DNA of 64,000 nucleotides from Alphaproteobacteria bacterium (GCA_016699735.1 CP065008.1:404032-468031); one strand, 5' to 3'. Numbered from the stretch's first letter, positions 16,227 to 50,233 are shown. A program made the numbers and translations. The notes: generated by a model from the letters alone, not told the origin.

Positions 16227-16302
<76 letters not shown>

Positions 16303-27873: not shown

Positions 27874-28839
27874 ATGAATAAAGTTGTTTGCTGTATTCTG
27901 ACTGTCCTTTTGGCTTTCCTCGTTTCTGCTAGCTTTAGATATGCATACGCAGAACCGACATTAGAGTTAAGTCGTCAGGAAAAAATAAAGCGCTCCTTCG
28001 AAAAGTATCTTGAAAATTTTTTGTTAAAGAGCCTTATACCAGAGAGCAACGTCGCACCATCAGTTATTTCACATAGAGAATCCCACGATTCCGTGTATGA
28101 AGAGCTTCACAAAAGGCATCCACAACTGATCCCGCTTTTTACACTAAATAAAACACATGATTTGTACTCACTTTACAAATTATCAAACCCTCCGAAAGTG
28201 TTTCTGGGCTACCCTGAATACCTTCAGCCAAGATATGATGGAGAAGAAAAACAGGAGGGACGCAAGAAAGCATTTGAATATTCAAAGCTACTCAATGAGA
28301 AACTAAAGGATTTTGAGTGGCCAGAAAATTTTTCGGTCGTACTATCGCCCAAAGAGGCGAACATCTTCATCTTTCCTGTTGAAAAGAAAACATTCATCTA
28401 TGTCTCGGTACCCAGTCGTCTCTCAATACATTCCAAATCACGAGGCAACTATGAAAATTTATTCTTAAACATTAACGATACTTTCTACAACGCTACATCC
28501 TTCAAGTTAAACGATGAGGGATTAAGCGGAGAGTTCTTTACTACAGAGGAAAGAAAAATACTTGTCTCTTTCTGCCCAATAGACATGCAAAAGAGTGATC
28601 CTGAGATCAAAGAAAGCGTAGATCTATGCCTTATTAAATCACAGGGACTCCCCGGATTTAGCCGAATAATGCCCTTCCAGAAAGCTTATTATCGAGAATG
28701 GGGAGCGATCCTTAATAAATTTTCTGCCTGTATCTTTGATGAGGGCACGAGTTCTTTCACCGATATCGATTTCTCATCTGCTTTTAAAAAGTGCTTGAAA
28801 GAAAAGGATTATATAAATGCCGGTAAGCTTTTCGAGTGA
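27874..28839 (+). CDS. secreted hypothetical protein (321 aa)
   Basis: Signal peptide MNKVVCCILTVLLAFLVSASFRYAYA. AT-rich. Overlaps the RTX gene start by 23 nt. Confidence 0.5.
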   Translation: MNKVVCCILTVLLAFLVSASFRYAYAEPTLELSRQEKIKRSFEKYLENFLLKSLIPESNVAPSVISHRESHDSVYEELHKRHPQLIPLFTLNKTHDLYSLYKLSNPPKVFLGYPEYLQPRYDGEEKQEGRKKAFEYSKLLNEKLKDFEWPENFSVVLSPKEANIFIFPVEKKTFIYVSVPSRLSIHSKSRGNYENLFLNINDTFYNATSFKLNDEGLSGEFFTTEERKILVSFCPIDMQKSDPEIKESVDLCLIKSQGLPGFSRIMPFQKAYYREWGAILNKFSACIFDEGTSSFTDIDFSSAFKKCLKEKDYINAGKLFE

Positions 28840-31800
28840 TCATCCCTCTGTCAGCAACTCCGATATTAGGAACGCAACTAACAACCTAATTAATAAGTCG
28901 GCCAGTCTTCGCCGCGCCATTGATGCATTGGAAAAGAAAGGGGTACAAATAGATATTAAAGTTACAGACAATCCCGATGCGGAAGGCGCAGAAATAACGG
29001 AAATAGGTAATGATGACAGTCATTTTGAAATCAAAATTCCTAAGCAAGTATTTGATGGAGAAAAATATACTGACCCTGATAATCAGCAACATGACACGAC
29101 ATTTGAAAGAAATTTAGCTCACGAACTTGTTCACGTTTACAAGGACGTTATGAATAAAACAGACTCTGAGCAGATTGCTGAGGACGGTGCCGATAAAATT
29201 ATGAAAGAGGCCTATCAGGAGAAGGAAAATCAATACGATAGTAATCCCCCAGACTCAACTTCAGGTACTCCTAAATTCCACGACACTTCTCCACCCGATC
29301 CAAATGATTACGAGTGGCCAGGTCAACCCATTTATACACCGCCAGCCGATCTTCAGCCGATAGGATTTGTGCCCACCCAGTCTGGAGGTTCCGGAGTCGG
29401 CATGGGAGGCGGACTTGATCCCTTAGTATTTGACTTAGATGGAAGCGGAACTATTGACCTAATATCTGTACAAAACTCTGGTATTCATTTCGATTTCTGG
29501 GGCGATGGCTTTGCTGAGGCTACTGGATGGGTTGCAGCCGCAGACGGAATGTTGGCGTGGGATATAGATGAGTCCGGACTTATTGATAGTGTAGCCGAGT
29601 TGTTTGGTTCTAATTTCCCAATCTCTTATGTCACAGAGGCTGATTGGGTTCAGTTCAGAGATTTTGAGAACGGATTCGCTCGTTTAGCAGCGCTAGACTC
29701 GAATCTTGATGGAGAAATTAGCTCCAGCGATGCGATCTGGACTGAATTACGCATTTGGCAAGATGTTAATCAAGACGGCGTATCGCAGAGCAGCGAATTA
29801 TTAACGCTGAGCCAATCTGGTATTTCAAGCATTGACATTACTAATTATGTCTTAGACTCGTTTCAGGGGCTTTCTAGCGGTGGTTTCACGAGAATCATTG
29901 AGGGGAATACAGTTACCCATTCAGGCAGTTTTGAATTGGTAGGTGGGGGAACAAGAGAGCTTGTAGATGTATGGTTTGATGCCAACATGGACAACACTGT
30001 GTATTCATCAGAGTACATATACGAAGGGGATGTTCTTTTTCTTCCGATGCTTCGCGGTTATGGACAAATTGCGGACCTTTATGTTTCTATGAGTATCGAT
30101 AATCAAGCAGGAGGATTATTTGATCTTATTCAAAATTTCTCTGTAGCAAGAACATTCTCGGATATTTTTGTCGATTTTAGTTCAGTCCGTGATGAGGTAG
30201 AGGAAATAATTCTTCGTTGGGGTAGCATCGACTCAATCTCTTTTGAAGAGCAGAAATACGGTGTGTTCGGCCTAATGCAAGAATTTCTTTTTCTAAAAAA
30301 ATTATCAGGCACTGATTCTGATTATCAAGGTGTTTGGTTTGATGGAACCCCCTACTTACCTCATACGGTAGATGGAATAGAAGCGATTCATGATACATGG
30401 TCTAGTCTGATTGACTCTTATACCGTAAGATTAGCCTTTCAAAGCGGAGCTGAAGCACTCTTTGAAAATGTAGTGGCTTATGACCCTGATCGCGATTTAT
30501 TCAATGGGGACTTAAGTCTTTCGCAGGCTGCAATAGCAGCACTCGAAACAGGGGCAACTGGCCATGCTGATATTCAGGGATTCTGGCATTTTGTGGCCAA
30601 TTTTATCAATGAAGTTAAAGGTATATCTCAGCTCACGACCAATGAAGTGACTTGGTTATCGGATGCTGTCGATGATAGCTCTTCAAGTGCTTTAAGCTGG
30701 AGCGGGATCGTAGCGACTTTAAGTGAGCAGACAATAACAGGAACCAGTGGCAGTGAAACCCTTAACGGCACGCGCTGGGATGATAATATTAATGCCTTGG
30801 CAGGCAACAATATTGTTAATGGCGGCGACGGCAACGACTCTCTTCAAAGCAGCACAGGCTCAGATATTTTAAACGGCGGTTCCGGGAACGATATTTTGCG
30901 AGGCGGTTCCGGGAACGATATCTATATATATGACTCAGGTCACGATGTAATCGCGGAAGATTTCAATAATTTTACGACCAGCACGGACACTATTCAATTT
31001 GGTGCGGGCATAGCTGTTGGCGACGTGACTCTTCACATTGCCCAGATGATCGCAAATGTGAGCACATGGCACATTTTTCTAGAGATTGCAGGACGCGGTA
31101 CATTAACGATTGATACTCCATCGGGAGGCAGCGGCCCCTTTACAAAAATTGTCGATACTCTCGTCTTTGCTGACAGCACGACATTCAATATAGCCACAAT
31201 GGACGTGACCTTTCATGGGCAAGTCGGGGATGATTATATCAACACCGCTAACTGGGCCACGACAGGCGATCAGTTTGTCTATGGCTATGGCGGAGATGAC
31301 CGGATTGACCTGATCGGAACGCAACCTATTCAAGTGGACGCAGGAGAGGGCAAGGACTTAATTTATGGCAGTGTTAATAACGACACGTTTGTTGTCAGTC
31401 CCGGAGGCGACCAGTTTGTTGGAGGCGGTGGAACCAATACGATCTTGCTGCCGTCGGGATATTCTGCTGGAGACGTTACTTATTACCGCTACGAAGATAT
31501 ATCGACTCCGTATAGCAGCCCCAAAACATGGGATGCGTTGATTACTGTCGCGGGGTTGGGTTCTATTACGGTTCTAAGACAGTTTGAAGGTGATACGGAC
31601 TCTATTATCCAAACGCTAAAATTTTCAGATGGCTCGACAGTCAATCTACTGACTCAGGAATATGTAACGTTTGGCACATCAGGCGATGACACTTATGACA
31701 ACGTTGGTTCCTTGTGGGCAAACAAGAATGATGTTTATCTTTTTGGACAAGGGGACGATATTGTTCAAGAGGATACCGGAACGGATACCATTCTTTTCGC

Positions 31801-34099
31801 AGCAGGGTTAAACCTGTCAAATATTACCGTTCAAAAGCGTGATACAGGCAGCCATTTCTCTACAACCAAATTCCTTGTAATCGAGGACGGTAATGGAAAT
31901 ACTCTTACGTTCAAAGGTCACTTTGACAATAATGCTTACAAGGCAGAGAACTTAAAGTTTAACGATGGCTCTATTATCAGCATCTCTAGCCTTGAAATCG
32001 ACTCTCATGGCTCAGGGGGCGATGACAGGCTTGATGGCATAGTGGCAGGTTCTGATCTCACTACTAACGATGTCATGTACGGTCATGGCGGCGCTGACCA
32101 GATTTACGCGGGCGCGGGCAACGATGTGTCCTATGGCGGCACGGGCAATGATTACATTTTCGATGATGCCGGGAACGACACCCTGTATGGTGAAGACGGG
32201 GATGACCAGCTCTATGGTTACTCCGGGAACGACACTCTTTACGGCGGCATAGGAACCGATATTTTGCGGGGCGATGACACGTTTGCCAGTTCTTCGATTA
32301 CTGGCAACGACTTCCTCTATGGTGGCGATGGCAACGACAATCTCTCCGGAGGTCGGGGCAATGACCTCCTCGACGGTGGCGCTGGTGATGATGTGCTGAG
32401 CGGGGATAATGACACCGATACAGTGGCCTACGCCTCTTCAACAGCAGGCGTGACCGTTTCGTTGGCTCTCACTTCAGCCCAGAACACAATCGGCGCCGGA
32501 ACCGATACCATCACCAATACCGAAAACCTCACCGGATCGGCTTTCAATGACGTTCTGACCGGCGATGCCAGCGCCAATACCCTGACAGGCAGTGACGGGA
32601 ACGATGTTCTGGAAGGTTTGGCCGGGAATGATACCCTCGATGGCGGGAATGGCAGTGATACGGCCAGCTACGCCAATGCGACCGCTGCTGTGACGGTCAA
32701 TCTGGCCACCACGACCGCCCAGAATACTGTGGGTGCAGGAACCGATACGCTCGTCAGTATCGAGAACGCAAAAGGCTCGGCCTTCAACGACACGCTGACC
32801 GGAAGCTCTGGCAGTAACGTCATTGAGGGCGGAGCGGGCAACGACACGCTCAATGGCGCGGCCGGTACGGATACGCTGAGCTATGTCTCGGTGGCTTCAG
32901 CGGTGACGGTCAATCTGGCCACGACTACGGTGCAGGCCACGGGCGGGGCCGGATCGGACACGGTCTCCAATTTCGAGAACCTGACAGGCTCGGCCTTTAA
33001 CGACACGTTGACGGGCAATACCGGAAACAACGTCATCGAAGGTGGCGCGGGCAATGATGCCATTAACGGCAGCACGGGAACGGATACGGCTTCATACGAA
33101 AATGCAACTGCCGCCGTCACGGTGAGCCTTGCCCTCACCACAGCTCAGAATACGCTCGGCGCAGGCACAGATACGCTCACAGCCATGGAGCATCTGCGCG
33201 GCTCGGCGTTCAACGATACCCTGACCGGAAGCTCGACGGACAACACCATAGAAGGCGGCGCCGGGGATGACACGATGAATGCGGGGTCCGGCTCCGACAC
33301 ACTCCTGTATGCAAGCGCGACCTCCGGCATTACTGTCAGTCTTGCTCTCACCACCGCGCAGAACACGGGCGGCGCGGGGACGGACACGATCTCGAACTTC
33401 GAGAAAATCACCGGATCGGCTTTCGCGGATGTTCTTACAGGAAATTCTGCGGCGAATACGTTGGATGGCGGATTGGGCGATGACATTCTGGACGGTGGCG
33501 CAGGCAACGACACGCTGAACGGCAACACCGGAACGGATACGGCCAGCTATGCTTCGGCAACAGCGGCCGTTACGGTCAGTCTGGCCCTCACCACGGCGCA
33601 GAATACGGTCGCCGCTGGATCGGACACCATCACAAACACCGAAAATCTGACGGGCTCGGGCTTCAACGACACGCTGACGGGCAATACAGGGATCAATATC
33701 CTGACCGGAGGGGCTGGGAACGATACTCTGCGAGGCGGCGCAGGCAATGACGCGCTCAAAGGCGGTCTGGGCACGGATACCCTCTACGGCGAGGCGGATG
33801 CCGATTTGTTTGTCTTTGAAGCGGCCTCAGCGTTCACAGCGCAGGATACAGTGGCGGATTTCTCGATCGCGCAGGGGGACAAGCTCAACATTGCCGACCT
33901 TCTGATCGGCTATACGGCTGGACAGAGCGCGATTGATGATTTTGTAACCTTCACCACCGCCGGAGCCAATACCAACTTCGCTGTAGACCGCGACGGAACC
34001 GGAACGACATACAGCGCCATTACGATTGCCAGCATCACAGGTGTTACTGGCCTTGATGCCGATACGCTTCTCAATAACGGAAACCTGATTGCGGTTTAA
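28817..34099 (+). CDS. RTX calcium-binding repeat protein with N-terminal HExxH zincin-like region and type I secretion C-terminal target domain
   Basis: LAHELVHVY. Many GGxGxD nonapeptides (GGSGNDILRGGSGNDIYIY, GGDGNDNLSGGRGNDLLDGGAGDD). C-terminus DADLFVF...GDKLNIADLL...NGNLIAV resembles a T1SS target domain. Confidence 0.85.
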   Translation: MPVSFSSDHPSVSNSDIRNATNNLINKSASLRRAIDALEKKGVQIDIKVTDNPDAEGAEITEIGNDDSHFEIKIPKQVFDGEKYTDPDNQQHDTTFERNLAHELVHVYKDVMNKTDSEQIAEDGADKIMKEAYQEKENQYDSNPPDSTSGTPKFHDTSPPDPNDYEWPGQPIYTPPADLQPIGFVPTQSGGSGVGMGGGLDPLVFDLDGSGTIDLISVQNSGIHFDFWGDGFAEATGWVAAADGMLAWDIDESGLIDSVAELFGSNFPISYVTEADWVQFRDFENGFARLAALDSNLDGEISSSDAIWTELRIWQDVNQDGVSQSSELLTLSQSGISSIDITNYVLDSFQGLSSGGFTRIIEGNTVTHSGSFELVGGGTRELVDVWFDANMDNTVYSSEYIYEGDVLFLPMLRGYGQIADLYVSMSIDNQAGGLFDLIQNFSVARTFSDIFVDFSSVRDEVEEIILRWGSIDSISFEEQKYGVFGLMQEFLFLKKLSGTDSDYQGVWFDGTPYLPHTVDGIEAIHDTWSSLIDSYTVRLAFQSGAEALFENVVAYDPDRDLFNGDLSLSQAAIAALETGATGHADIQGFWHFVANFINEVKGISQLTTNEVTWLSDAVDDSSSSALSWSGIVATLSEQTITGTSGSETLNGTRWDDNINALAGNNIVNGGDGNDSLQSSTGSDILNGGSGNDILRGGSGNDIYIYDSGHDVIAEDFNNFTTSTDTIQFGAGIAVGDVTLHIAQMIANVSTWHIFLEIAGRGTLTIDTPSGGSGPFTKIVDTLVFADSTTFNIATMDVTFHGQVGDDYINTANWATTGDQFVYGYGGDDRIDLIGTQPIQVDAGEGKDLIYGSVNNDTFVVSPGGDQFVGGGGTNTILLPSGYSAGDVTYYRYEDISTPYSSPKTWDALITVAGLGSITVLRQFEGDTDSIIQTLKFSDGSTVNLLTQEYVTFGTSGDDTYDNVGSLWANKNDVYLFGQGDDIVQEDTGTDTILFAAGLNLSNITVQKRDTGSHFSTTKFLVIEDGNGNTLTFKGHFDNNAYKAENLKFNDGSIISISSLEIDSHGSGGDDRLDGIVAGSDLTTNDVMYGHGGADQIYAGAGNDVSYGGTGNDYIFDDAGNDTLYGEDGDDQLYGYSGNDTLYGGIGTDILRGDDTFASSSITGNDFLYGGDGNDNLSGGRGNDLLDGGAGDDVLSGDNDTDTVAYASSTAGVTVSLALTSAQNTIGAGTDTITNTENLTGSAFNDVLTGDASANTLTGSDGNDVLEGLAGNDTLDGGNGSDTASYANATAAVTVNLATTTAQNTVGAGTDTLVSIENAKGSAFNDTLTGSSGSNVIEGGAGNDTLNGAAGTDTLSYVSVASAVTVNLATTTVQATGGAGSDTVSNFENLTGSAFNDTLTGNTGNNVIEGGAGNDAINGSTGTDTASYENATAAVTVSLALTTAQNTLGAGTDTLTAMEHLRGSAFNDTLTGSSTDNTIEGGAGDDTMNAGSGSDTLLYASATSGITVSLALTTAQNTGGAGTDTISNFEKITGSAFADVLTGNSAANTLDGGLGDDILDGGAGNDTLNGNTGTDTASYASATAAVTVSLALTTAQNTVAAGSDTITNTENLTGSGFNDTLTGNTGINILTGGAGNDTLRGGAGNDALKGGLGTDTLYGEADADLFVFEAASAFTAQDTVADFSIAQGDKLNIADLLIGYTAGQSAIDDFVTFTTAGANTNFAVDRDGTGTTYSAITIASITGVTGLDADTLLNNGNLIAV
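32411..33790 (+). repeat. about six tandem coding repeats of 70-80 aa (210-240 bp) within the RTX gene
   Basis: Reiterated unit DTxSYAxATAAVTVxLAxTTAQNTxGAGTDTxxxxENLxGSAFNDTLTGxxxxNxxxGGAGNDTLxG. Confidence 0.8.
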
Positions 34100-34163: not shown

Positions 34164-35828
34164 TTATGCGGTAATGCCTTTCACTGAGCTATTGAGCGTG
34201 AAAAACCTGTGGTAAAAACTTTGATTGGGGGCAGGATAGGGGGCAAGACAATAAATATGAATTAATAATATGTTTAACAACAAATACTTAATAATATGGT
34301 TCGATCCCGATAGGGCCACCATTTCTGTCCTCCCCAGTGACAACTCCTGTAAAAGCCTGACTGGCAGCGAGGTTTCAGCGGTTCGAAAACCCGTTTTCTT
34401 GTCATAGGCCAGTTTGCTGGTAAAGGTGAGTTTTATCACGGCGCGTTTGTGTTCGAGGTTGCCTTTAGCCCATATTTTCTGCGGGTTTGAGAGGAAAGAG
34501 AACGCGGTTCGAAAGGTTTCATCGAACGGAGCCAAAGGGCGACCGCATTGCGCGATTTTCTCATCCAACCTGATCTTCTCCTCTTCCAGAATTCTTATCT
34601 GGTTCTCGTAGGCGGCGATCAGTGTAGGGTTTTCATTCTGTGCAATCCTCTGAAAAAAATGAGTGGATTTGCGATCAAGCTGGAGTGCTTGCTGGCGCAA
34701 TGTTTCCGTGTCCGTTTTGACGGCCTCGCGTTTGGCATTCCAGAGGTCCGTAAACATGGCGGCAGCCATAAAGAACACATGCTCCGAAGGCTTCAGATCG
34801 GCCAGGAGGCTCTCAAAATCGCCTTCGAGCTGTTCACGGCGGATAGATTTCCCATCGCGCTCACACCCATTTGTGCGGCACAGGTAATAGGGATACTTGC
34901 CATTACGTCCCGTGGACCAGCAAGCGGCCATCGGCCTTTCGCAGCAGGCGCATATGACAAATCCTCTTAGCGGGAAGTCCGCATTGATATTCAGCTTAGC
35001 AGGGGCTTTGGCTTGCCCGTGGAGGCGGTCTTGTATCTTGCGGTAGGTCTCGTAGCTGATAAGGGGTTCGTGCCTGCCCTTAACCATCGACAGTCCCCAT
35101 TCGGGTTTGTCGATGTAGCCTGCATAAAAAACGCGATCCAGCATATCCCTGACCTGCGAGAAATAGATTTTACCTTTGCGGTCGCGCTGAAAATGCGGCG
35201 TACCCATAAAGAAATGCCGGAGTTCGGAAATCGTTTCAAACCGCCCGCAGGCATACCCTTCCAGCCCCTCGGCAATGATGGAGGCCAGAGGCTCATCCCG
35301 CACTAGAATTTTCCCGCCGGAGCCTTTTTCCTTAGCGTAGATATATCCGGGGACCGGATAAAAGGTCCAATACCCGTTTTGCATTCTGGACATCATCCGG
35401 TTTTTGACCTGTTCAGCATTTTTCTCGCGCTGGTGCGCGGCCACAGACGCCAGCAGATGCTCGACCAAGCGGCTGTCAGAATCCTCGCCAAACTCAATCG
35501 AAGGTGATTCCAGCTTGCCGCCTGCATCGGTAATCGAAGTCCTTAAACGAATATGGGTTTCAATATCTCTGGCCAGTCTGGAGATGTCGTCTATAATAAC
35601 GACAAGATGATCGTTTTTATGTTTCTTGAGATAACCCAGCATCGCTTTCATATTCGGACGATCCAAGAGCTTGCCTGACAACCCTTCATCCCGAAACACG
35701 TCAATAACCTCATAGTTCTTGTGCTTGGCATAATCACGGCATCGTGTTTCTTGCGAGGCAAGGCCGTTTCCTTCGGTCACCTGCTTCACCGAAGAAACCC
35801 GCGCATAGATGACAGCTTTTTGAATCAT
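34164..35828 (-). CDS. large serine recombinase; annotated 3' end runs through the att repeat into island 1
   Basis: Resolvase N-terminus KAVIYARVSSVKQ...DDISRLARD. Recombinase domain. Zn-ribbon CACCERPMAAC...YYLCRTNGC. Coiled-coil. Confidence 0.85.
   Translation of the reverse strand: MIQKAVIYARVSSVKQVTEGNGLASQETRCRDYAKHKNYEVIDVFRDEGLSGKLLDRPNMKAMLGYLKKHKNDHLVVIIDDISRLARDIETHIRLRTSITDAGGKLESPSIEFGEDSDSRLVEHLLASVAAHQREKNAEQVKNRMMSRMQNGYWTFYPVPGYIYAKEKGSGGKILVRDEPLASIIAEGLEGYACGRFETISELRHFFMGTPHFQRDRKGKIYFSQVRDMLDRVFYAGYIDKPEWGLSMVKGRHEPLISYETYRKIQDRLHGQAKAPAKLNINADFPLRGFVICACCERPMAACWSTGRNGKYPYYLCRTNGCERDGKSIRREQLEGDFESLLADLKPSEHVFFMAAAMFTDLWNAKREAVKTDTETLRQQALQLDRKSTHFFQRIAQNENPTLIAAYENQIRILEEEKIRLDEKIAQCGRPLAPFDETFRTAFSFLSNPQKIWAKGNLEHKRAVIKLTFTSKLAYDKKTGFRTAETSLPVRLLQELSLGRTEMVALSGSNHIIKYLLLNILLIHIYCLAPYPAPNQSFYHRFFTLNSSVKGITA
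34227..34247 (+). promoter_or_regulatory. two copies of GGGGGCA(G/A)G near the island-1 right end
   Basis: GGGGGCAGG at 34227-34235 and GGGGGCAAG at 34239-34247. Same orientation as the three copies at 16426-16467. Confidence 0.45.
34298..34321 (+). repeat. attR-like copy of the tRNA-Ala 3' end (junction between island 1 and island 2)
   Basis: 24 nt identical to 16278-16302 apart from one deleted T. Confidence 0.8.
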
Positions 35829-37591: not shown

Positions 37592-38176
37592 ATGAGTGCG
37601 CTTGAGCAAGTTAAACATCATCTTCGGGAGGGCGAAGTTTATCGCCGCGCTGACCTTGAACAATGGTCAAATGCCGTTGATCGTCACCTGCACCAGTTAC
37701 AAGAAGAAGGGGTGCTGGTGAAGCTCTCTGGCGGCATGTATTATCGCCCGAAGATGACCGCGTTTGGCGCAACCCCTGCCGATGATGAAACGCTGGTTGA
37801 GGCGTTTCTCAAGGATCATCGTTTCCTGCTGACCTCCCCAAATCTTTATAACGCTTTGGGGCTTGGCATGACGCAGCTTTATAATGAAACGGTAGTTTAT
37901 AATCACAAGCGGCATGGCCAGTTTAAACTAGGCGGCAGGACATTCCGCTTTGCGATGAAACCGCATTTTCCGTCCAAACCAACCCCTGAATTCTTGCTGG
38001 TGGATGTTGTAAATAACCTTGGCCAGCTTGCCGAAGACAGGGAGCAGGTATTGAAGCAGGTTCAAAAAAAGGCGCTTTCTATGGAGAGGATCATCCTTGC
38101 CAAGGCCGTGCGCGACTATGGCGGCGCACGGGCGAAGAAAGTATTTGCCAAACTTCTTTCCACAGATACGATGTAA
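37592..38176 (+). CDS. AbiEi-antitoxin-like / DUF6088-like winged-helix protein
   Basis: EVYRRADLEQWSNAVDRHLHQLQEEGVLVKLSGGMYYRPK fits the AbiEi_4-type pattern (G-l-x-rl-x-rG-x-Y). No AbiEii nucleotidyltransferase partner is present. Confidence 0.5.
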   Translation: MSALEQVKHHLREGEVYRRADLEQWSNAVDRHLHQLQEEGVLVKLSGGMYYRPKMTAFGATPADDETLVEAFLKDHRFLLTSPNLYNALGLGMTQLYNETVVYNHKRHGQFKLGGRTFRFAMKPHFPSKPTPEFLLVDVVNNLGQLAEDREQVLKQVQKKALSMERIILAKAVRDYGGARAKKVFAKLLSTDTM

Positions 38177-38250
38177 TATGTACGATATTAAATTCTTACA
38201 TAACTTACTAATTATTTTGCGCTCAAACGTATTGCCGTGGAACACTAAAA

Positions 38251-40941
38251 GTGAATATAGCAGAAATCGGAATAGAACTTGGTGATCTGGTCAATGAAAA
38301 TTTTGATCCGGCTACATTCATCTATCGTTTTCTGGAAATATACAAAGCCCCCAAAAGCACACTTGATAAATTTCGCAAAGGCACACAAAACAAGGCCGAT
38401 ATAAACGGAGATTTGCTTTGGCAGAGAAAGATATATTTCCGCCAAATACAAAGCGGAGATACAGCCAAAGCACTTGATGAAATCAAAGCCCTTAAAGTTA
38501 TAAAAACCTACAAGCCCAGATTGATATTGGTTACTGACGGCAAGGAAGTATCCGCCCTCGATTTGAAAACAGATGATTCTCTCCATTGTGATTTTATAAA
38601 ATTGAGTGACCGCTTCGGTTTTTTCTTATCTGTAGCCGGAATAGATGTATATAAGGCAGTAGAGGAAAACTGCGCAGATATTAAAGCCGCAGGACTTTTA
38701 GCAAAATTCCATGACGAAATCATGCAGGTGAATGCTGGATGGCATACGCCTGAAAAACGCCATGCCCTCAACCAATTTATGATGCGAGTTTTGTTTTGCT
38801 TATTTTCAGAGGATACAGGCAGTTTCAAAGAAGATTTATTCGTACAAACTGTATCAGATTACGGCGGTGATAACGGCGAATATATCCAAGACCTTCTGAC
38901 ACAGCTTTTTGAGATCATGAACACCTCGAAAGAGAAGCGGGGCAATATTTCAACGCATATATCCGCTTTTCCCTATGTTAATGGCGGCCTGTTTGCCGAT
39001 AAAACTGAAGTTCCGAAGTTCAGCAAACGCGCTAAACGCCTCCTGATTGAAGCGGCAAGGCTGGATTGGCGCGAAATTAACCCCGATATTTTTGGCTCGA
39101 TGATCCAAGCGGTCGTGGATACCGATATGCGCGGTGATCTGGGAATGCACTATACGTCCGTTCCCAATATCATGAAGGTTCTGCATCCGCTTTTTCTCAT
39201 GTCTTTGGAAGAAGAATTTGAGGAAGCGCAGGGACGGCGTGATGAACGCGCACGGCTTCAAAAGCTGCTTACTCGCATTTCAAAAATCAGGGTATTTGAT
39301 CCAGCCTGTGGCTCTGGAAACTTCCTGATTATAGCCTATCGAGAGCTTAGAAAGCTCGAAATGCGAATATTCCAGCGTGAGGATGATCTGGACGGCGGCA
39401 CGATCCGAAACCGTTATGAAACCCATGTTAAAATCTCAAATTTCTATGGCATAGAGCTTGCCGATTTTGCCGCAGAAACCGCCAAATTATCGCTCTGGAT
39501 TGCCGAATATCAGATGAATCAGAGATTCAAAAATCTATTCGGAGAAATGCCAGACCCTTTTCCATTGAATGAAGGCGGTCATATCACCAGTGGCAATGCC
39601 CTGCGAGAAAACTGGGAAGAAATTTGCCCACCCGTAAATGATCCAGAAATTGAAACCTATATCGTAGGAAACCCGCCATATTTAGGAAGCACTTTCCAAA
39701 ATCCAGAACAGAAGCAGGATATGGCGTCGGTATTTTCCCCCATAACCAAAAACTATAAAAACCTAGACTATGTAACGGCTTGGTATCTAAAAGGAGCGCA
39801 CTACTGCACCAAACATCAGGCAGAATGCGCTTTTGTAGCGACCAATTCGATTTGTCAGGGTGAACAAGTAGCTCTGCTCTGGCCTTTGATATTCAAAATG
39901 GGTTTAGAAATAGGTTTTGCACACCAATCTTTCAAATGGAGTAATCTGGCAACAAATAACGCAGGTGTTACCTGCTCAATTATTGGAATTAGAAAAAATT
40001 GTGACCAAAAAAAAATACTATTTCATGATGAAATTGCCCGTAATGTAAAAAACATTGGGGCATATCTCATTGAAATGCCTAATGTTATAGTTCAAAAATC
40101 ATCAAAGCCGCTTAACAGCTTGCCTAACATGGATTACGGCAATAAACCTGTAGATGGTGGTAATCTCATTCTATCCGCTGAAGAAAAAAACGAGCTTATT
40201 GGTAAATACCCTCAAGCAGAAAAATTGATACGACGTTTCTATGGATCACAAGAGCTTATCAAGGGTATTGAGAGGTGGTGTTTGTGGATTCAAAATGATG
40301 ATCTACCTTTCGCAAACAGCATACCGCCTATAGCACAGCGCATTAAAAATGTTCATGCTCTTAGATTAAAAAGCAAAGATAGTGGCGCAAATAAAATGGC
40401 AGAGCGCGCACACCAATTTAGAGAGATGAATATTGCTCAGGAACACTACCTGATTATTCCCAGTGTTTCCTCGGAAAATAGACCTTATATACCCGTGGAC
40501 TTATCAGATTCAAAATCTTGTATTAGTAATCTGGCTTTTGGAATATATGACTGCCCTATATATGTATTTTCGATAGTTGCCTCAAAACTGCATAACATAT
40601 GGATAAAAGCCGTTTGCGGCCAGCTAGAAACACGAGTGCGCTATTCAAATACCCTCGGTTACAACACATTTCCGCTCCCAGCTTTGACTAAAGAAGATAA
40701 AGAAGAGCTGGAAAACCATGCTTGGAATATCTTAGGAATACGGCAATCCTACACTGGCAAAACAATCGCATGGCTTTACGATCCCAAAACAACGCCAGCC
40801 GACCTACTCGCCGCGCACAAATCTCTCGATGATTGCCTTGAAAAAATCTACATAGGCCGCCCTTTCAAAGACGATACCGAACGCCTCGAACACTTGTTCA
40901 AAATGTATGAAAAAATGACCGCAAAAGGGGGTAAAAAATGA
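38251..40941 (+). CDS. MmeI-family (type IIL/IIG-like) N6-adenine DNA methyltransferase homologue, full length, nuclease motif apparently degenerate
   Basis: Collinear with my recollection of MmeI throughout: FMMRVLFCLFSEDTGSF, AFPYVNGGLF, LGMHYTSVPNI, motif I FDPACGSGNFLI, motif IV VGNPPYLG, ATNSICQGEQVALLWP, YGNKPVDGGNL, SSENRPYIP. GTG start. Confidence 0.9.
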   Translation: MNIAEIGIELGDLVNENFDPATFIYRFLEIYKAPKSTLDKFRKGTQNKADINGDLLWQRKIYFRQIQSGDTAKALDEIKALKVIKTYKPRLILVTDGKEVSALDLKTDDSLHCDFIKLSDRFGFFLSVAGIDVYKAVEENCADIKAAGLLAKFHDEIMQVNAGWHTPEKRHALNQFMMRVLFCLFSEDTGSFKEDLFVQTVSDYGGDNGEYIQDLLTQLFEIMNTSKEKRGNISTHISAFPYVNGGLFADKTEVPKFSKRAKRLLIEAARLDWREINPDIFGSMIQAVVDTDMRGDLGMHYTSVPNIMKVLHPLFLMSLEEEFEEAQGRRDERARLQKLLTRISKIRVFDPACGSGNFLIIAYRELRKLEMRIFQREDDLDGGTIRNRYETHVKISNFYGIELADFAAETAKLSLWIAEYQMNQRFKNLFGEMPDPFPLNEGGHITSGNALRENWEEICPPVNDPEIETYIVGNPPYLGSTFQNPEQKQDMASVFSPITKNYKNLDYVTAWYLKGAHYCTKHQAECAFVATNSICQGEQVALLWPLIFKMGLEIGFAHQSFKWSNLATNNAGVTCSIIGIRKNCDQKKILFHDEIARNVKNIGAYLIEMPNVIVQKSSKPLNSLPNMDYGNKPVDGGNLILSAEEKNELIGKYPQAEKLIRRFYGSQELIKGIERWCLWIQNDDLPFANSIPPIAQRIKNVHALRLKSKDSGANKMAERAHQFREMNIAQEHYLIIPSVSSENRPYIPVDLSDSKSCISNLAFGIYDCPIYVFSIVASKLHNIWIKAVCGQLETRVRYSNTLGYNTFPLPALTKEDKEELENHAWNILGIRQSYTGKTIAWLYDPKTTPADLLAAHKSLDDCLEKIYIGRPFKDDTERLEHLFKMYEKMTAKGGKK

Positions 40942-41678
40942 TTTTTGATAATATTGATTATTCAAAACTCCCCTCAAGCGGAGAAGAAGCATTCATTGAA
41001 TTTGAAAGACAGTTACGACATGAATACAACGGCACAGTTGAATACGACAGAAATGTCAGAGAAAATACAGACATGAACGGTAATTATATAGGCTCTTATG
41101 CCCCTGAAAGAGCCTATCTAAACTCAATCATGGCTTTTATTGATGAATATAATCTTGATCTTGACATAGCAGACTGTGGTAGCCTCAGGGGTTACGAATT
41201 TTATGAAAAATTTGAAGAACTAAAAGCAAAAATTGGCTATGCCGTAACACGATTTAGCATCAGAAAACATAGGATTGGCGAAGGAACAGTTGGGACGCTT
41301 ATATACATAGAAAGCTCGTATAAAGCTGAAATTGGATCGCTTTTGGAAAAGATTAGAAAAATTGTGAATCAAGAAGTTAAAGATGTTAAGAAGAGAGATC
41401 ATATATTTTCAAAAATCGCCTCTTTGCAATCAGAAGTGGATAGGGATCAAACAACTGTTGATGCGCTGTTTTCTCGAATGCTTGATTTATCTTCGACAAT
41501 AGGCGAAAGCGCAGAAAATTTAGAACCTTTAATAAATCTTCTGGAAAGAATAAAAAAAGTGTTTTGGGATAAATCTAATAAAGTTGAATTGCTGCCGCAA
41601 AAAGAGCGGCAAAAGCTAATCACAAAAGAAAATAAATCCTCAGAAATAGATGAATTTGAGGATGAAATACCATTTTAG
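40938..41678 (+). CDS. hypothetical protein (246 aa), translationally coupled to the methyltransferase
   Basis: ATGA overlap with the MTase stop. No P-loop or nuclease motif recognised. C-terminal half looks helical/coiled with an acidic tail. Confidence 0.55.
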   Translation: MIFDNIDYSKLPSSGEEAFIEFERQLRHEYNGTVEYDRNVRENTDMNGNYIGSYAPERAYLNSIMAFIDEYNLDLDIADCGSLRGYEFYEKFEELKAKIGYAVTRFSIRKHRIGEGTVGTLIYIESSYKAEIGSLLEKIRKIVNQEVKDVKKRDHIFSKIASLQSEVDRDQTTVDALFSRMLDLSSTIGESAENLEPLINLLERIKKVFWDKSNKVELLPQKERQKLITKENKSSEIDEFEDEIPF

Positions 41679-41692
41679 AAAAGGTGATATAA

Positions 41693-43669
41693 ATGCCAAA
41701 TTTTGTTGAGGTAGCATACGACCAAACAGGGGAAAGCCAGAAGCAAAATGCTATGGGCATGAGAGCCATGCAAGCCAGAGCCTTTGCAGAGCGCGGGTCT
41801 CAATATCTTCTGGTAAAAGCACCGCCAGCATCGGGCAAATCCCGTGCTTTGATGTTTATTGGTCTCGACAAACTCGAAAACCAAGGCATTCAAAAGGTTA
41901 TAGTAGCTGTGCCGGAACGCTCAATCGGTTCATCCTTCAAATCAACAGAGCTTACAAAATACGGGTTTTCTCGTGATTGGAGCGTGGATGAGCAATGGAA
42001 TCTTTGTACTGCCGGAGGGGATGCAGGGAAGGTTAGCAAATTTCAGTCCTTCATGGAAAGTGACGCCAAAATTCTGGTTTGCACCCATGCCACGTTGCGC
42101 TTTGCCTTTGATAAAATCGGGGTAGAACCTTTTGCCAAATGCCTGCTGGCGATTGATGAGTTTCACCATGCCTCTGCGGATGCCGATAACCGCCTTGGCG
42201 AGGTCGTGCGTAAACTTCTTGATGATGGCCGCGCCCATATTGTCGCTATGACAGGAAGCTATTTCAGAGGCGATAGCCTGCCTGTCCTGCGGCCTGAGGA
42301 TGAAGAGAAATTCACCCGTGTAAGCTATACCTACTATGAGCAGCTTAACGGCTATACCCATCTTAAAACCCTTGGAATTGGTTATCATTTCTATCGGGGA
42401 AATTACCTCGATGCGATTATGGAGGTTCTTGACCCTAAGAAAACCATCATTCACATCCCGAACGTCAACTCTGCTGAAAGCACCAGTGAAAAATACGTCG
42501 AAGTTGACAGGATTATTGACCATCTGGGCGAATGGCAGGAAACCTGCCCTGACACAGGTTTGCACATCATAAAGCACAAATGCGGTAAATTACTGCGTGT
42601 TGCCGATCTGGTCGAAGATGACGCAAAGACCAGAAACCGTGTCATGGAAACCTTGCGAAATGTGTCCAGTGCGGATGATCTGGACATTATCATAGCCCTT
42701 GGCATGGCGAAAGAAGGTTTTGACTGGACGTACTGTGAACACGCTCTTACGATTGGTTATCGTGGATCATTGACAGAAATTATCCAGATTATTGGCCGCT
42801 CCACCCGTGATTGCCCTAACAAAGCCCACGCCCAGTTTACCAATCTGATTGCAGAGCCGGATACCAGCCAAGAAAATGTAACCTCTGCTGTAAACGATAT
42901 GCTCAAAGCCATAGCTGCTTCGCTGCTTATGGAGCAGGTTCTAGCCCCCAATTTTAAGTTCAAGACCCACCCAACAGGCGATAATCTCGACGGCTCTGTG
43001 AAAGTCGTAGATATTGATTACACTCAGAGCGAAACAACAGTTGCGATCAAGGGTTTCGCAGAACCTAGCACGCCCCGTGTTAAGCAAATCGTACAAAACG
43101 ATCTAGTTGATTTAATGGCAAAAATTATGCAAGACGAACGTGTTATCAGGGCAGCGATTAACCCTGATGAGATTGCACCTGAAGTAGTTTCACAGGTTTA
43201 CATCCCTAAGGTTATTGAGAAAAAATATCCAGAATTATCAGAGCAAGAAGTTGAAGAAATTAGGCAGCACGTCATGGCAAATGCTGTATTCAAAACCTCG
43301 GCAGAGGGCGGAATGCCGGAGCTAAACAATAACCTAATAAAGTTGGTTAATAAATTCGTGAATGTTCGGGATTTGGATGTTGATCTTATTGACTCTATAA
43401 ACCCGTTCCAGCTTGCCTACGAGGTTATGTCAAAATCTATTGATGCCGATATTCTAAAGGTAATTCATGGTGCAATTACCGCTACAAAAATCAAAATGAC
43501 GGAGGAAGAGGCTACCTCATTATATCCGCGTATTCGTGCTTTCAAGGATTCACATGGGCGAGAGCCAAGTATGGTTTCTTCCGACCCTATGGAACGACGA
43601 ATGGCAGAAGCCCTTGAATGGATACGCAACAAGAAACGTGAAAAATTGCGTTCTCAGCAATCGGCATAG
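41693..43669 (+). CDS. SF2 (DEAD/DEAH, ResIII-like) helicase
   Basis: Motif I KAPPASGKSRAL, motif II LLAIDEFHHA, motif III MTGS, motif VI QIIGRSTR. Starts 15 nt after the preceding stop. Confidence 0.85.
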   Translation: MPNFVEVAYDQTGESQKQNAMGMRAMQARAFAERGSQYLLVKAPPASGKSRALMFIGLDKLENQGIQKVIVAVPERSIGSSFKSTELTKYGFSRDWSVDEQWNLCTAGGDAGKVSKFQSFMESDAKILVCTHATLRFAFDKIGVEPFAKCLLAIDEFHHASADADNRLGEVVRKLLDDGRAHIVAMTGSYFRGDSLPVLRPEDEEKFTRVSYTYYEQLNGYTHLKTLGIGYHFYRGNYLDAIMEVLDPKKTIIHIPNVNSAESTSEKYVEVDRIIDHLGEWQETCPDTGLHIIKHKCGKLLRVADLVEDDAKTRNRVMETLRNVSSADDLDIIIALGMAKEGFDWTYCEHALTIGYRGSLTEIIQIIGRSTRDCPNKAHAQFTNLIAEPDTSQENVTSAVNDMLKAIAASLLMEQVLAPNFKFKTHPTGDNLDGSVKVVDIDYTQSETTVAIKGFAEPSTPRVKQIVQNDLVDLMAKIMQDERVIRAAINPDEIAPEVVSQVYIPKVIEKKYPELSEQEVEEIRQHVMANAVFKTSAEGGMPELNNNLIKLVNKFVNVRDLDVDLIDSINPFQLAYEVMSKSIDADILKVIHGAITATKIKMTEEEATSLYPRIRAFKDSHGREPSMVSSDPMERRMAEALEWIRNKKREKLRSQQSA

Positions 43670-43680
43670 GATTTCAGGAT

Positions 43681-44862
43681 ATGCCAAGAATGACTTTAGA
43701 TGATATTCTTGCCCTAGATGATGATCTTTTGGACGTGAAGCTCTCTAGCAACCATGCCGGAACAGAAGATCAAAGAATCCTTAGTGTATTTGAAGAAATT
43801 AATTTATTCATAGACAAGCATAAGCGAAAACCCGCAGAAGGCAAAAATCCTTCTGTTTTCGAGCGTAGCCTTAAGATCAAACTTTCCGGCATTCTGAATG
43901 ATGCAAATAGGCATGACTTTTTACTCGAACATGACAGGCACGGGCTGTTACCTTCTGTTCCAGTGAAGTCTCCTAAAACATTGGATGAAATCCTTGATCT
44001 GGACGATGATCTTTTAACCACCCCGAAAGACGATATTTTTAATTTGGTTCATGTGCTATCTGCGGCTGATAGACCAGATATGATTTCTGACCGCCGCCCA
44101 TGTCTTGATTTTGAGAGCTTTAAGCCTCTTTTCGAAAAATGTTCCCAAGAAATCAATACTGGTAAGCGCAAAACGCTTAAATTTTCAAAAGAGCAGGAAA
44201 TCAATGCTGGTGAATTTTTCATACTGAACGGTGTCATGGTTTATGTTGCCGAAGTGGGGGAAACACACATTCGAAATGGCAAAAAAAATGCTCGCTTAAG
44301 ACTAATATTTGACAATGGTATGGAGGGAAAGAACCTTCTTCGATCATTAGCTACAGAACTGTATAAGGATAAAAACGGGCGCCGCGTATCTAATCCAGAA
44401 GTTGGCGGCCTTTTTGATTCTCAGCCAGAAGAAGGGGACTTACAAACGGGCATGATCTATGTGGTTAGAAGCCTGTCACCCGATCCAGAAATCAAGAAAT
44501 ACGATGGAATGCTCCATAAAATCGGATTCACCTCTGGAAAAATGGAGATTCGTATTCAAAACGCCAAGGATGATCCAACATTTCTTATGGCGGCCGTTCA
44601 TCCTGTCGCAACATATATTCTCTACAACATTGACAAAGTTAAGCTGGAATATCTTCTACATAGCTTCTTCGCAGAAGCACGGCTTGATATTGATATAGCC
44701 GACCGTTTCGGGAAGAAAATCAAACCTAGAGAATGGTTTTTATTAAAATATGAAACGATTGCCGAAGCTGTATCCAGACTGAAAGACGGTTCAATCGTAG
44801 ATTATAAGTTTGATTTAGATACGGGAAATTTAATCCTACGGGAACAAGTAAATGCAAAATGA
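43681..44862 (+). CDS. T5orf172 / GIY-YIG-superfamily-like domain protein
   Basis: C-terminal GMIYVVRSL...LHKIGFTSGKMEIRIQNA...EYLLHSFFAEARL...REWFLL matches the T5orf172 pattern as I recall it. Duplicated N-terminal motif LD(D/E)IL-LDDDLL. Confidence 0.65.
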   Translation: MPRMTLDDILALDDDLLDVKLSSNHAGTEDQRILSVFEEINLFIDKHKRKPAEGKNPSVFERSLKIKLSGILNDANRHDFLLEHDRHGLLPSVPVKSPKTLDEILDLDDDLLTTPKDDIFNLVHVLSAADRPDMISDRRPCLDFESFKPLFEKCSQEINTGKRKTLKFSKEQEINAGEFFILNGVMVYVAEVGETHIRNGKKNARLRLIFDNGMEGKNLLRSLATELYKDKNGRRVSNPEVGGLFDSQPEEGDLQTGMIYVVRSLSPDPEIKKYDGMLHKIGFTSGKMEIRIQNAKDDPTFLMAAVHPVATYILYNIDKVKLEYLLHSFFAEARLDIDIADRFGKKIKPREWFLLKYETIAEAVSRLKDGSIVDYKFDLDTGNLILREQVNAK

Positions 44863-44913
44863 TACCTCAAAAATTACTTGCTTAAACAGCTATTTGCGGA
44901 AATGATATGTCTT

Positions 44914-45840
44914 ATGAGTAATAGCGCAAAAGACTGGAAATCATTTGAAGAGCAAATAGGCATCCTCCAATCAAGGGGGATGATTATTGATGACAAATCG
45001 GAAGCATTAATATTTTTAGAACGTGTTGGCTATTATAGGCTGAGTGGCTATTGGTATCCCTTTCGTAAATTTGATAATGGTGCGCGGCAGGACGACTTTA
45101 TCCCTGAAACACGTTTTTCTGATATTATCTCATTATATGATTTTGATCGCAGGCTTCGCTTGCTTGCCCTTGATGCGGTAGAGCGTATTGAACTATCTGT
45201 TCAGGTTGATATTGCTTATCTTCTAGGAAAACGCGATCCTTTTGCTCATGAAAGTCCGAATGAACTTCACGGTAATTTTTCAAGACCCAGAAGAAGCGGA
45301 CAATCAGAATATGACCTGTGGATTGAGGATTACAATCGGCTTGTAGATCGTTCTAAGCGCAAACCCTTTGTAGCCCATAATTTGAAAAAATATGGCAAAT
45401 TACCTATTTGGGTAGCTATTGAAATATTTGATTTTGGGGCAATGTCAAAGCTCTATGCGGGCATGAAACATCAAGACAAAATCAATATAGAAAAGAAATT
45501 TGGTCTTAACGCGGGAACAGAATTTGAAACATGGCTTAGAGGCTTTAACTTTATCCGCAATACTGCTGCACATCATAGCAGGCTTTGGAATTGCAATGTC
45601 TTGGAAAGGGCTATAATTCCGCGCTCAAAATTAAAGCTATACCCCTTAAACAATTCAAGGCCGTTTCTATATTTTTGCATGATGCAAAGTGTTTTAAAGG
45701 TGATCTGTCCTGATGCCAGATGGGGTGAAAGATTTATTGAATTGCTGAATACATTTCCAGAGGTTAAAAACCAAGCAATCAAATTGGAAGATATGGGATT
45801 TATAGAAGGCGCAAAAGAATGGCCACTTTGGAAAACATGA
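44914..45840 (+). CDS. Abi_2 (AbiD/AbiF-like) abortive-infection family protein
   Basis: KSFEEQIGILQSRGMIIDD...FLERVGYYRLSGYWYPFR and FIRNTAAHHSRLWN are hallmark Abi_2 motifs. ATG at 44914 preferred over TTG at 44878. Confidence 0.8.
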   Translation: MSNSAKDWKSFEEQIGILQSRGMIIDDKSEALIFLERVGYYRLSGYWYPFRKFDNGARQDDFIPETRFSDIISLYDFDRRLRLLALDAVERIELSVQVDIAYLLGKRDPFAHESPNELHGNFSRPRRSGQSEYDLWIEDYNRLVDRSKRKPFVAHNLKKYGKLPIWVAIEIFDFGAMSKLYAGMKHQDKINIEKKFGLNAGTEFETWLRGFNFIRNTAAHHSRLWNCNVLERAIIPRSKLKLYPLNNSRPFLYFCMMQSVLKVICPDARWGERFIELLNTFPEVKNQAIKLEDMGFIEGAKEWPLWKT

Positions 45841-50148: not shown

Positions 50149-50183
50149 CTGGTTCGTCAGGTGGGGGGCGATGTCCACCAACT
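50149..50183 (+). repeat. degenerate third copy of the tRNA-Ala 3' end (candidate distal att of island 2)
   Basis: GGTTCG...CGATGTCCACCAACTTA. The 13-mer GTCCACCAACTTA is identical to 16295-16307 and the GGTTCG head is shared. The middle has diverged. Confidence 0.35.
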
Positions 50184-50233
50184 TATTCCTTTTCCTTTTA
50201 TTATTGTCGGAACGCCCGGAGCTCGCCGAAATC

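Follow-up and report, generated by a model that had tools for sequence, protein, structure and literature searches.

Homologues of the restriction-modification enzyme MmeI fall into two sets, the second of which, exemplified by YeeA of Bacillus subtilis, lacks the PD-ExK nuclease motif (Morgan et al. 2009, Nucleic Acids Research; PMC2731913). The genes of this second set are always flanked by genes for a DEAD helicase and a GIY-YIG protein, and the same paper speculated that both specificity and protective modification come from the MmeI-like subunit and that its altered N-terminal domain recruits the separate helicase and endonuclease subunits. A synteny analysis published in mBio in 2023 (PMC9973331) placed YeeB-like helicases at the +1 position and YeeC-like T5orf172/GIY-YIG proteins at the +2 position after homologues of DnmA (YeeA) across species. 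Here, a locus of this kind is analysed in a stretch of 64,000 nucleotides (nt) of alphaproteobacterial DNA (GCA_016699735.1, CP065008.1:404032-468031), hereafter the window. The genes at 38251-44862 are assigned, with a probability of roughly 0.85, to the YeeA(DnmA)/YeeB/YeeC three-component restriction-modification-like family; under this assignment a gene for a 246-amino acid (aa) protein, embedded between the methyltransferase and helicase genes, is cargo and not part of the core.

Two experimental studies bear on the function of the family. The dnmA-yeeB-yeeC genes of B. subtilis had no effect on three phages or on transformation, the DnmA motif was not depleted in phage genomes, and the B. 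subtilis proteins lack C-terminal stretches that the Vibrio proteins possess (PMC9973331). In Vibrio crassostreae 7F1_18, resistance to one group of phages came only from yeeAB (Piel et al., bioRxiv 10.1101/2021.05.05.442762). Literature searches and the defence catalogues searched yielded no newer formal name for the triad. A preliminary description of the window had presented six adjacent genes as a candidate novel defence operon and did not recognize the gene set as a named system. However, the triad was published in 2009, its synteny was re-analysed in 2023 and phage resistance conferred by yeeAB is on record from V. crassostreae, so the call of a novel system falls. The locus adds a member to a known triad, with an unusual embedded cargo gene, and its residual value lies in the mechanism of a widespread triad, in the hotspot at the methyltransferase-helicase junction and in the family of the 246-aa protein, with its tail resembling that of SSB, the protein that binds single-stranded DNA.

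Conservation of the three-gene core

The conservation of the locus was examined by scanning one genome per GTDB species with the helicase. At least 590 relatives were found, and the surroundings of 80 of them were fetched (loci L006-L085), spanning the Alpha-, Beta- and Gammaproteobacteria, Bacteroidota, Firmicutes, Planctomycetota, Actinomycetota, Chlamydiota and Campylobacterota. A T5orf172 homologue directly follows the helicase gene in 79 of the 80 loci, and the contig of the remaining one stops within the helicase. Upstream, 70 loci have an MmeI homologue in the same orientation; the contigs of the other 10 extend less than 2.4 kb upstream. The order methyltransferase-helicase-T5orf172 is thus present in every fetched locus with room for it, which is beyond a chance juxtaposition of independent genes. 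Homologues of the 246-aa, AbiEi and Abi_2 proteins occur in none of the 80 loci, and these three genes, which had been counted as parts of the system, do not belong to it as conserved components. Because the order of the three genes recurs in the absence of the other three, the conserved unit is the methyltransferase-helicase-T5orf172 triad. It is very widespread, occurring in at least 590 species-representative genomes from many phyla.

The window locus shares with the described YeeA(DnmA)-YeeB-YeeC loci a PD-ExK-less MmeI-family methyltransferase, an SF2 (superfamily 2) DEAD-type helicase and a GIY-YIG/T5orf172 protein, all encoded on one strand and in the same order. It also shares with them (Morgan 2009; Nye et al. 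2020, Nucleic Acids Research; PMC9973331; the Vibrio locus) a location in low-GC, horizontally acquired DNA among defence and toxin genes. The window copy differs in having the 246-aa cargo gene between the methyltransferase and the helicase. A relative of the helicase with 78% sequence identity carries the name 'putative ATP-dependent helicase yeeB' in the protein collection, which contains more than 8000 helicase relatives. The same triad is found in Bacillus and Clostridium (L025, L026, L068 and L083) and in Vibrio (L049), where the helicases are 56-58% identical to that of the window.

Several points weigh against the assignment or limit its reach. The link to YeeB and YeeC of B. subtilis is drawn from the published definition and from the 'yeeB' name of the 78%-identical protein. 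The two experimental tests of the family in vivo conflict, with the Vibrio copy active and the B. subtilis copy inactive, and both methylation and restriction by the window locus are predictions from sequence. In addition, the ATG of the 246-aa gene overlaps the stop codon of the methyltransferase gene (ATGA), so a functional tie to the triad is possible, and three of the four loci with an embedded copy have the 246-aa gene immediately after the methyltransferase, a 199-aa open reading frame (ORF) intervening in the fourth (L086).

The methyltransferase

The methyltransferase aligns with the MmeI structure (PDB accession number 5HR4) over residues 14-891 with an E value of 3e-180. The MmeI stretch D70...E80-M-K82 is matched by D...R-Q-I in the window protein, such that the catalytic residues E80 and K82 are replaced by Arg and Ile, respectively. 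The preliminary description had correctly recognized that the nuclease motif is degenerate; its reading of the remnant as 'QxQ' is shifted by one residue relative to the 5HR4 alignment, ExK being absent in both registers. With both catalytic residues of PD-ExK replaced, the protein is not expected to cleave DNA on its own. The ExK residues are missing from all 58 full-length helicase-linked methyltransferases.

The motifs of the methyltransferase domain are intact, FDPACGSG at residues 349-356 and NPPY at residues 474-477, and the Asn of the latter is kept in 58/58 homologues. Mean sequence identity amounts to 51% for the methyltransferase core, 41% for the target recognition domain (TRD) and 34% for the N-domain. 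The greater divergence of the TRD and the N-domain fits the expectation for a specificity subunit. The PADLOC model REase_MTase_IIG (PDLC03598) matches the protein with an E value of 8.8e-303, but the label of a self-contained Type IIG enzyme is overstated given the replacement of ExK by R-Q-I.

The helicase and T5orf172 proteins

Conservation across 82 sequences reaches at least 95% for four motifs of the helicase: the Walker A GKS (K49), DEFHH (residues 155-159), TGS (187-189) and QxxGRxxR (365-372). The helicase is 52-60% identical between phyla and up to 78% identical within the Alphaproteobacteria. Its partners are conserved at lower levels, with 35-58% identity for the methyltransferase and 31-68% for the nuclease. 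Searches of the helicase against PADLOC, NCBIfam and PHROGs returned weak C-terminal matches only (PbeA, Cas3 and Dnd restriction models), and the search of PDB sequences returned only a weak and uninformative match to DHX58.

The T5orf172 protein is named 'GIY-YIG nuclease family protein' by NCBI. Among 68 homologues, conservation is at least 95% for residues G257, Y260, K280, G282, R291, E323 and H327 and for the segment P349-x-E351-W-F. The AlphaFold2 model, computed from an alignment of 38 sequences, has a mean pLDDT (predicted local distance difference test) score of 47.7, and a profile search of PDB sequences gave no match. The N-terminal half of the protein contains an acidic motif, LD[DE]IL-x-DDD-LL, twice (43690-43740 and 43978-44025; residues ~4-19 and ~100-114). 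The motif is kept in close homologues and may be a docking peptide.

Because conserved motifs are intact in each of the three proteins, the window copy of the triad looks functional, with three enzymes predicted to work.

Comparison with other systems

Among single-polypeptide enzymes, the closest relatives are MmeI and the other Type IIL (IIG) enzymes, to which the window methyltransferase is homologous over its full length, with the methyltransferase, TRD and C-terminal domains in common. The window enzyme differs in lacking the catalytic Glu and Lys and in its dependence on separate helicase and nuclease genes. As in those enzymes, modification is likely to place N6-methyladenine (m6A) on one strand of the site.

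Type I restriction-modification systems (HsdM/S/R; for example EcoprrI with PrrC) resemble the triad in two respects. Modification and specificity reside on subunits separate from the motor-nuclease, and embedded cargo genes are tolerated. In contrast to Type I systems, the window system has no HsdS, its TRD being fused to the methyltransferase; furthermore, separate proteins provide its motor and its nuclease, the latter being of a GIY-YIG-like and not of the PD-(D/E)xK type.

The bacteriophage exclusion (BREX) system, with PglX, and class 1 DISARM (defence island system associated with restriction-modification), with DrmMI, employ a related gamma-class m6A methyltransferase for asymmetric sites, and the window methyltransferase gives weak PADLOC and NCBIfam matches to PglX and DrmMI. 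The scores are nonetheless far below the family cut-offs, and PglZ, BrxC, BrxL, DrmA, DrmB and DrmC are missing from the scanned neighbours. BREX was rejected because the NCBIfam PglX models reach 16-27 bits where the cut-offs are 400-900, with no PglZ, BrxC or BrxL among the scanned neighbours. For DISARM, only partial DrmMI matches to the methyltransferase were obtained; the helicase has no match to DrmA or DrmD, and no phospholipase D (PLD) or DUF1998 protein is encoded nearby. The methylation-associated defence system (MADS) was likewise rejected, its partner genes being absent and its scores far below the cut-offs. The earlier statement that the BREX and DISARM partners are absent thus holds among the scanned neighbours.

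Searches of the six proteins against PADLOC, NCBIfam and PHROGs matched no named multi-gene system. The PADLOC library of hidden Markov models contains no system-specific helicase model and nothing for the T5orf172 partner, and the likely output of an automated pipeline is a self-contained Type IIG enzyme, with the three-gene unit missed. The Type IIG label that PADLOC gives to the methyltransferase explains why the triad had gone unrecognized in the preliminary description.

The methyltransferase-helicase junction and the 246-aa protein

The junction between the methyltransferase and helicase genes was surveyed in the 67 genome loci in which the 3' end of the methyltransferase gene is complete, and was counted as occupied where the two genes are separated by more than 350 nt. 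By this measure the junction is occupied in 27 loci (~40%), with gaps of up to 5.8 kb, and same-strand ORFs are present in 26 of the 27. Examples are the gaps at L056 9001-9999, L043 8262-9911, L055 9022-9999 and L072 4617-8110. The cargo families are mutually unrelated and include RhuM (8 loci), AlbA_2/HATPase_c_4 (6 loci), Fic/DOC, PDDEXK_3 and DUF1016/YhcG, as well as a KAP NTPase (nucleoside triphosphatase), HamA with a helicase (Hachiman-like), a HEPN/Abi_2-like protein, Bro-N and HTH-M78. The methyltransferase-helicase junction is therefore a recurrent insertion point for accessory genes. Type I hsd operons embed similar cargo, namely RhuM, Fic, AlbA_2, DUF1016, Abi and toxin genes.

The 246-aa protein occupies this junction in the window. 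Its sequence is identical to that of a hypothetical protein from an alphaproteobacterial metagenome-assembled genome, a match that identifies the source of the DNA. Profile searches placed it in no Pfam or NCBIfam family. Its AlphaFold2 model (pLDDT 83) is all-helical, with a disordered tail at residues 225-243, and a Foldseek search of the PDB found nothing below E = 0.2, with a TM (template modelling) score of 0.27. Weak matches to AbiEii (E = 0.003 over 44 residues), IcmG/DotF (0.0076) and phrog_9300 (5e-4) were dismissed as coiled-coil or short-segment noise, the AbiEii match being rejected because the AlphaFold2 model is all-helical.

The family of the 246-aa protein comprises ~1024 clusters at 50% identity, all of them proteins of ~240 aa without fusions. 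The gene occurs at the same junction in the window and in three independent loci, accompanied by a 218-aa ORF (L002/L003), by the 199-aa ORF and AlbA_2 (L086) or by DUF6119 (L091). In at least 10 other loci it occurs solo: between purQ and purL, in the S10 ribosomal-protein operon with rplW and rplB on either side, directly after the plasmid gene repA (Replication initiator protein A), beside a reverse transcriptase gene, after a small helix-turn-helix gene next to uvrB, and in several other contexts. Solo copies in core operons or on a plasmid are located at L098 3353-4093, L087 10001-10735 and L094 1199-1930.

The window protein ends in EDEIPF (41658-41675), which follows the disordered linker. 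Of 123 near-full-length divergent representatives of the family, 81 end in [IV]PF, mostly as DD[DE]IPF, after a variable linker rich in Pro and charged residues. Such a terminus is rare elsewhere: in all DNA fetched, 27 of 3344 ORFs end in [IVL]PF, and 25 of the 27 belong to the 246-aa family. Family members with the tip include those of L001, L002, L004 and L086-L109. The hexapeptide DDDIPF is the conserved C-terminal docking peptide of SSB (PMC5872125). The tail sequence thus suggests that the 246-aa protein plugs into the SSB interactome.

The preliminary description had cast the 246-aa protein as an adaptor between the methyltransferase and the restriction proteins. That role does not survive the comparison across genomes, because the gene occurs in none of the 80 helicase loci, most members of its family stand alone in unrelated contexts, and the GC content of the gene at third codon positions (GC3) is unlike that of both flanking genes. 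The 246-aa gene is co-transcribed optional cargo, not a core adaptor.

An alternative is a sub-variant of the triad into which the 246-aa protein is functionally integrated as a fourth component. Its SSB-like tail would then recruit the helicase and nuclease to SSB partners or to SSB-coated single-stranded DNA (ssDNA), or the protein would be a back-up effector or sensor of the PrrC kind, firing upon inhibition of the restriction complex. Its translational coupling to the methyltransferase, its position directly after that gene in most embedded loci, the conserved DD[DE]IPF tip behind a disordered linker and the nature of the other cargo at the junction, which is typical toxin and defence material, all speak for such a role. 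Against it stand the solo members, found in housekeeping operons and beside plasmid repA with no methyltransferase or helicase gene nearby, the absence from all 80 genome loci and a fold with no known relative. On balance this alternative is possible but unlikely. A broader form of it, which we regard as rather improbable, holds that the protein represents an undescribed, widespread all-α family whose embedded members would couple YeeABC to the SSB interactome or to SSB-coated ssDNA, or serve as the PrrC-like sensor or effector. If that were true, the embedded 246-aa gene would define a four-component variant of the triad, and the methyltransferase-helicase junction would be a dedicated docking site for accessory immunity genes.

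Proposed division of labour in the triad

The sequence comparisons establish which genes are present, that the nuclease motif is lost, that the methyltransferase, ATPase and GIY-YIG-type motifs are retained and that synteny is strict. How the three proteins may share their tasks can be proposed from the model of Morgan 2009 and from the biology of MmeI and DnmA. The methyltransferase, which keeps its S-adenosylmethionine-binding, NPPY and target-recognition domains, would act as the subunit for both sequence specificity and m6A self-marking, and by analogy with MmeI and DnmA it would probably modify one strand of an asymmetric site. The same protein would recognize unmethylated sites. Its degenerate N-terminal domain would dock the SF2 helicase/ATPase and the GIY-YIG/T5orf172 nuclease, and these two proteins would then attack DNA carrying unmethylated sites by ATP-dependent cleavage. 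A self-marking methyltransferase with outsourced restriction had also been proposed in the preliminary description; the idea is reasonable but not new, being the hypothesis of Morgan et al. 2009. The chance that this division of labour is correct in detail appears slightly better than even.

An alternative, proposed earlier for B. subtilis, is that the locus is a relic, in which restriction by the helicase and nuclease has been lost and the methyltransferase serves as an orphan epigenetic regulator. The null results with the B. subtilis copy and the lack of depletion of the DnmA motif in phage genomes are consistent with decay of this kind. However, the three window ORFs are intact, and comparison across phyla gives at least 95% conservation for their catalytic motifs and 52-78% identity for the helicase. 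The window locus has defence genes around it on a mobile island, activity is on record for the Vibrio homologue, and the inactive B. subtilis proteins are those without the C-terminal stretches. A relic is thus very unlikely, and a functional member of the YeeA(DnmA)/YeeB/YeeC family is the preferred reading of the locus.

Gene neighbourhood and island

The window cluster consists of six plus-strand genes (Table 1), with spacers of 74, -4 (the ATGA overlap), 14, 11 and 15 nt. The last value, between the T5orf172 and Abi_2 genes, applies to a TTG start; it is ~51 nt when counted from the first ATG of the Abi_2 ORF. The tight spacing and the domain content named in the preliminary description were thus confirmed, the latter by Pfam and PADLOC searches. 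So was the location of the genes in an AT-rich block of a mobilizable island. GC3 is 0.28-0.46 in the five genes that follow AbiEi, and the change in composition falls exactly at the intergenic region between the AbiEi and methyltransferase genes.

Table 1 Genes of the cluster and other features of the island. Positions are counted from the first nucleotide of the window; GC3 is the GC fraction at third codon positions.
Feature	Position	Strand	GC3	Evidence or remark
tRNA-Ala	16227-16302			adjoins the island
1511-aa protein	23123-27658			weak AAA_22 match
1760-aa RTX-repeat protein	28817-34099			
Partial repeat of tRNA-Ala 3' end	34298-34321			18 identical bases in 24 nt
Orphan AbiEi/DUF6088	37592-38176	+	0.54	PADLOC AbiEi 2e-87
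MmeI-family N6-adenine methyltransferase/specificity subunit, YeeA/DnmA-like, 896 aa	38251-40941	+	0.40	five MmeI Pfam domains
246-aa protein	40938-41678	+	0.275	no Pfam or NCBIfam family
YeeB-like SF2 helicase/ATPase, 658 aa	41693-43669	+	0.455	DEAD, ResIII, Helicase_C
YeeC-like T5orf172/GIY-YIG-family protein, putative nuclease subunit, 393 aa	43681-44862	+	0.36	MUG113 1.8e-11, T5orf172 9.2e-8
Abi_2/AbiD abortive-infection gene	44878-45840	+	0.33	Pfam Abi_2 9.3e-54, PADLOC AbiD 1e-65
DUF7946 protein, 351 aa	46043-47098	-		
P63C-domain protein, 331 aa	47110-48105	-		phrog_2384, 4.9e-103
Partial repeat of tRNA-Ala 3' end	50173-50185			13 nt including 5 nt of flank

The first gene of the cluster encodes a full-length AbiEi, as in AbiE pairs, from which the window differs in that the AbiEii nucleotidyltransferase toxin was not found in its 64 kb. 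The closest annotated AbiEi homologues, with 58-62% identity, are on alphaproteobacterial plasmids, and in 3/3 records examined the next gene is an overlapping AbiEii/AbiGii nucleotidyltransferase gene. A tblastn search of the window with the AbiEii partners of these three closest plasmid homologues detected no AbiEii, the best E value being 0.5. An exact-sequence look-up of the AbiEi protein returned no record. AbiEi had been placed at the head of the operon as its regulator; because its homologues pair with AbiEii, which is missing here, and because the composition breaks at the boundary between the AbiEi and methyltransferase genes, it is probably an orphaned remnant of an AbiE pair and not the operon head.

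At the other end of the cluster, the Abi_2 gene had been attached tentatively to the system. A same-strand gene lies within 200 nt downstream of T5orf172 in 31 of 60 loci, and these genes are unrelated to each other and to Abi_2; those examined encode AAA_15, HD-CE/HATPase, GmrSD, KAP, SIR2_2, SbcD-like and LigA proteins. No Abi_2 homologue lies downstream of T5orf172 in the 80 loci. Abi_2 is an independent single-gene Abi and an ordinary defence-island neighbour.

A new five- or six-gene defence operon, with the 246-aa protein as obligatory adaptor, AbiEi as dedicated regulator and Abi_2 as a further component, would suit the tight same-strand spacing, the lack of a strong terminator between the genes and the overlap of the 246-aa gene with the methyltransferase stop codon, but it is scarcely credible in view of a triad that was published in 2009 and recurs without any homologue of the three additional proteins, the mostly solo 246-aa family, the pairing of AbiEi homologues with AbiEii and the break in composition after AbiEi.

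The island that carries the cluster adjoins a tRNA-Ala gene and encodes a tyrosine integrase, a serine recombinase and a MobA/VirD2-type relaxase. DNA nearly identical to the 8.4-kb region was found neither in complete E. coli genomes nor in PLSDB plasmids. Two partial repeats of the tRNA-Ala 3' end are present (Table 1), and because of them the island looks like two tandem elements, of ~16.3-34.3 kb and ~34.3-50.2 kb, the latter containing the operon. The first segment encodes two very large proteins, one with RTX repeats. Downstream of Abi_2, in the same AT-rich block and convergent with the cluster, lie the genes for the DUF7946 and P63C-domain proteins, a pair that may be another small defence or phage-derived module.

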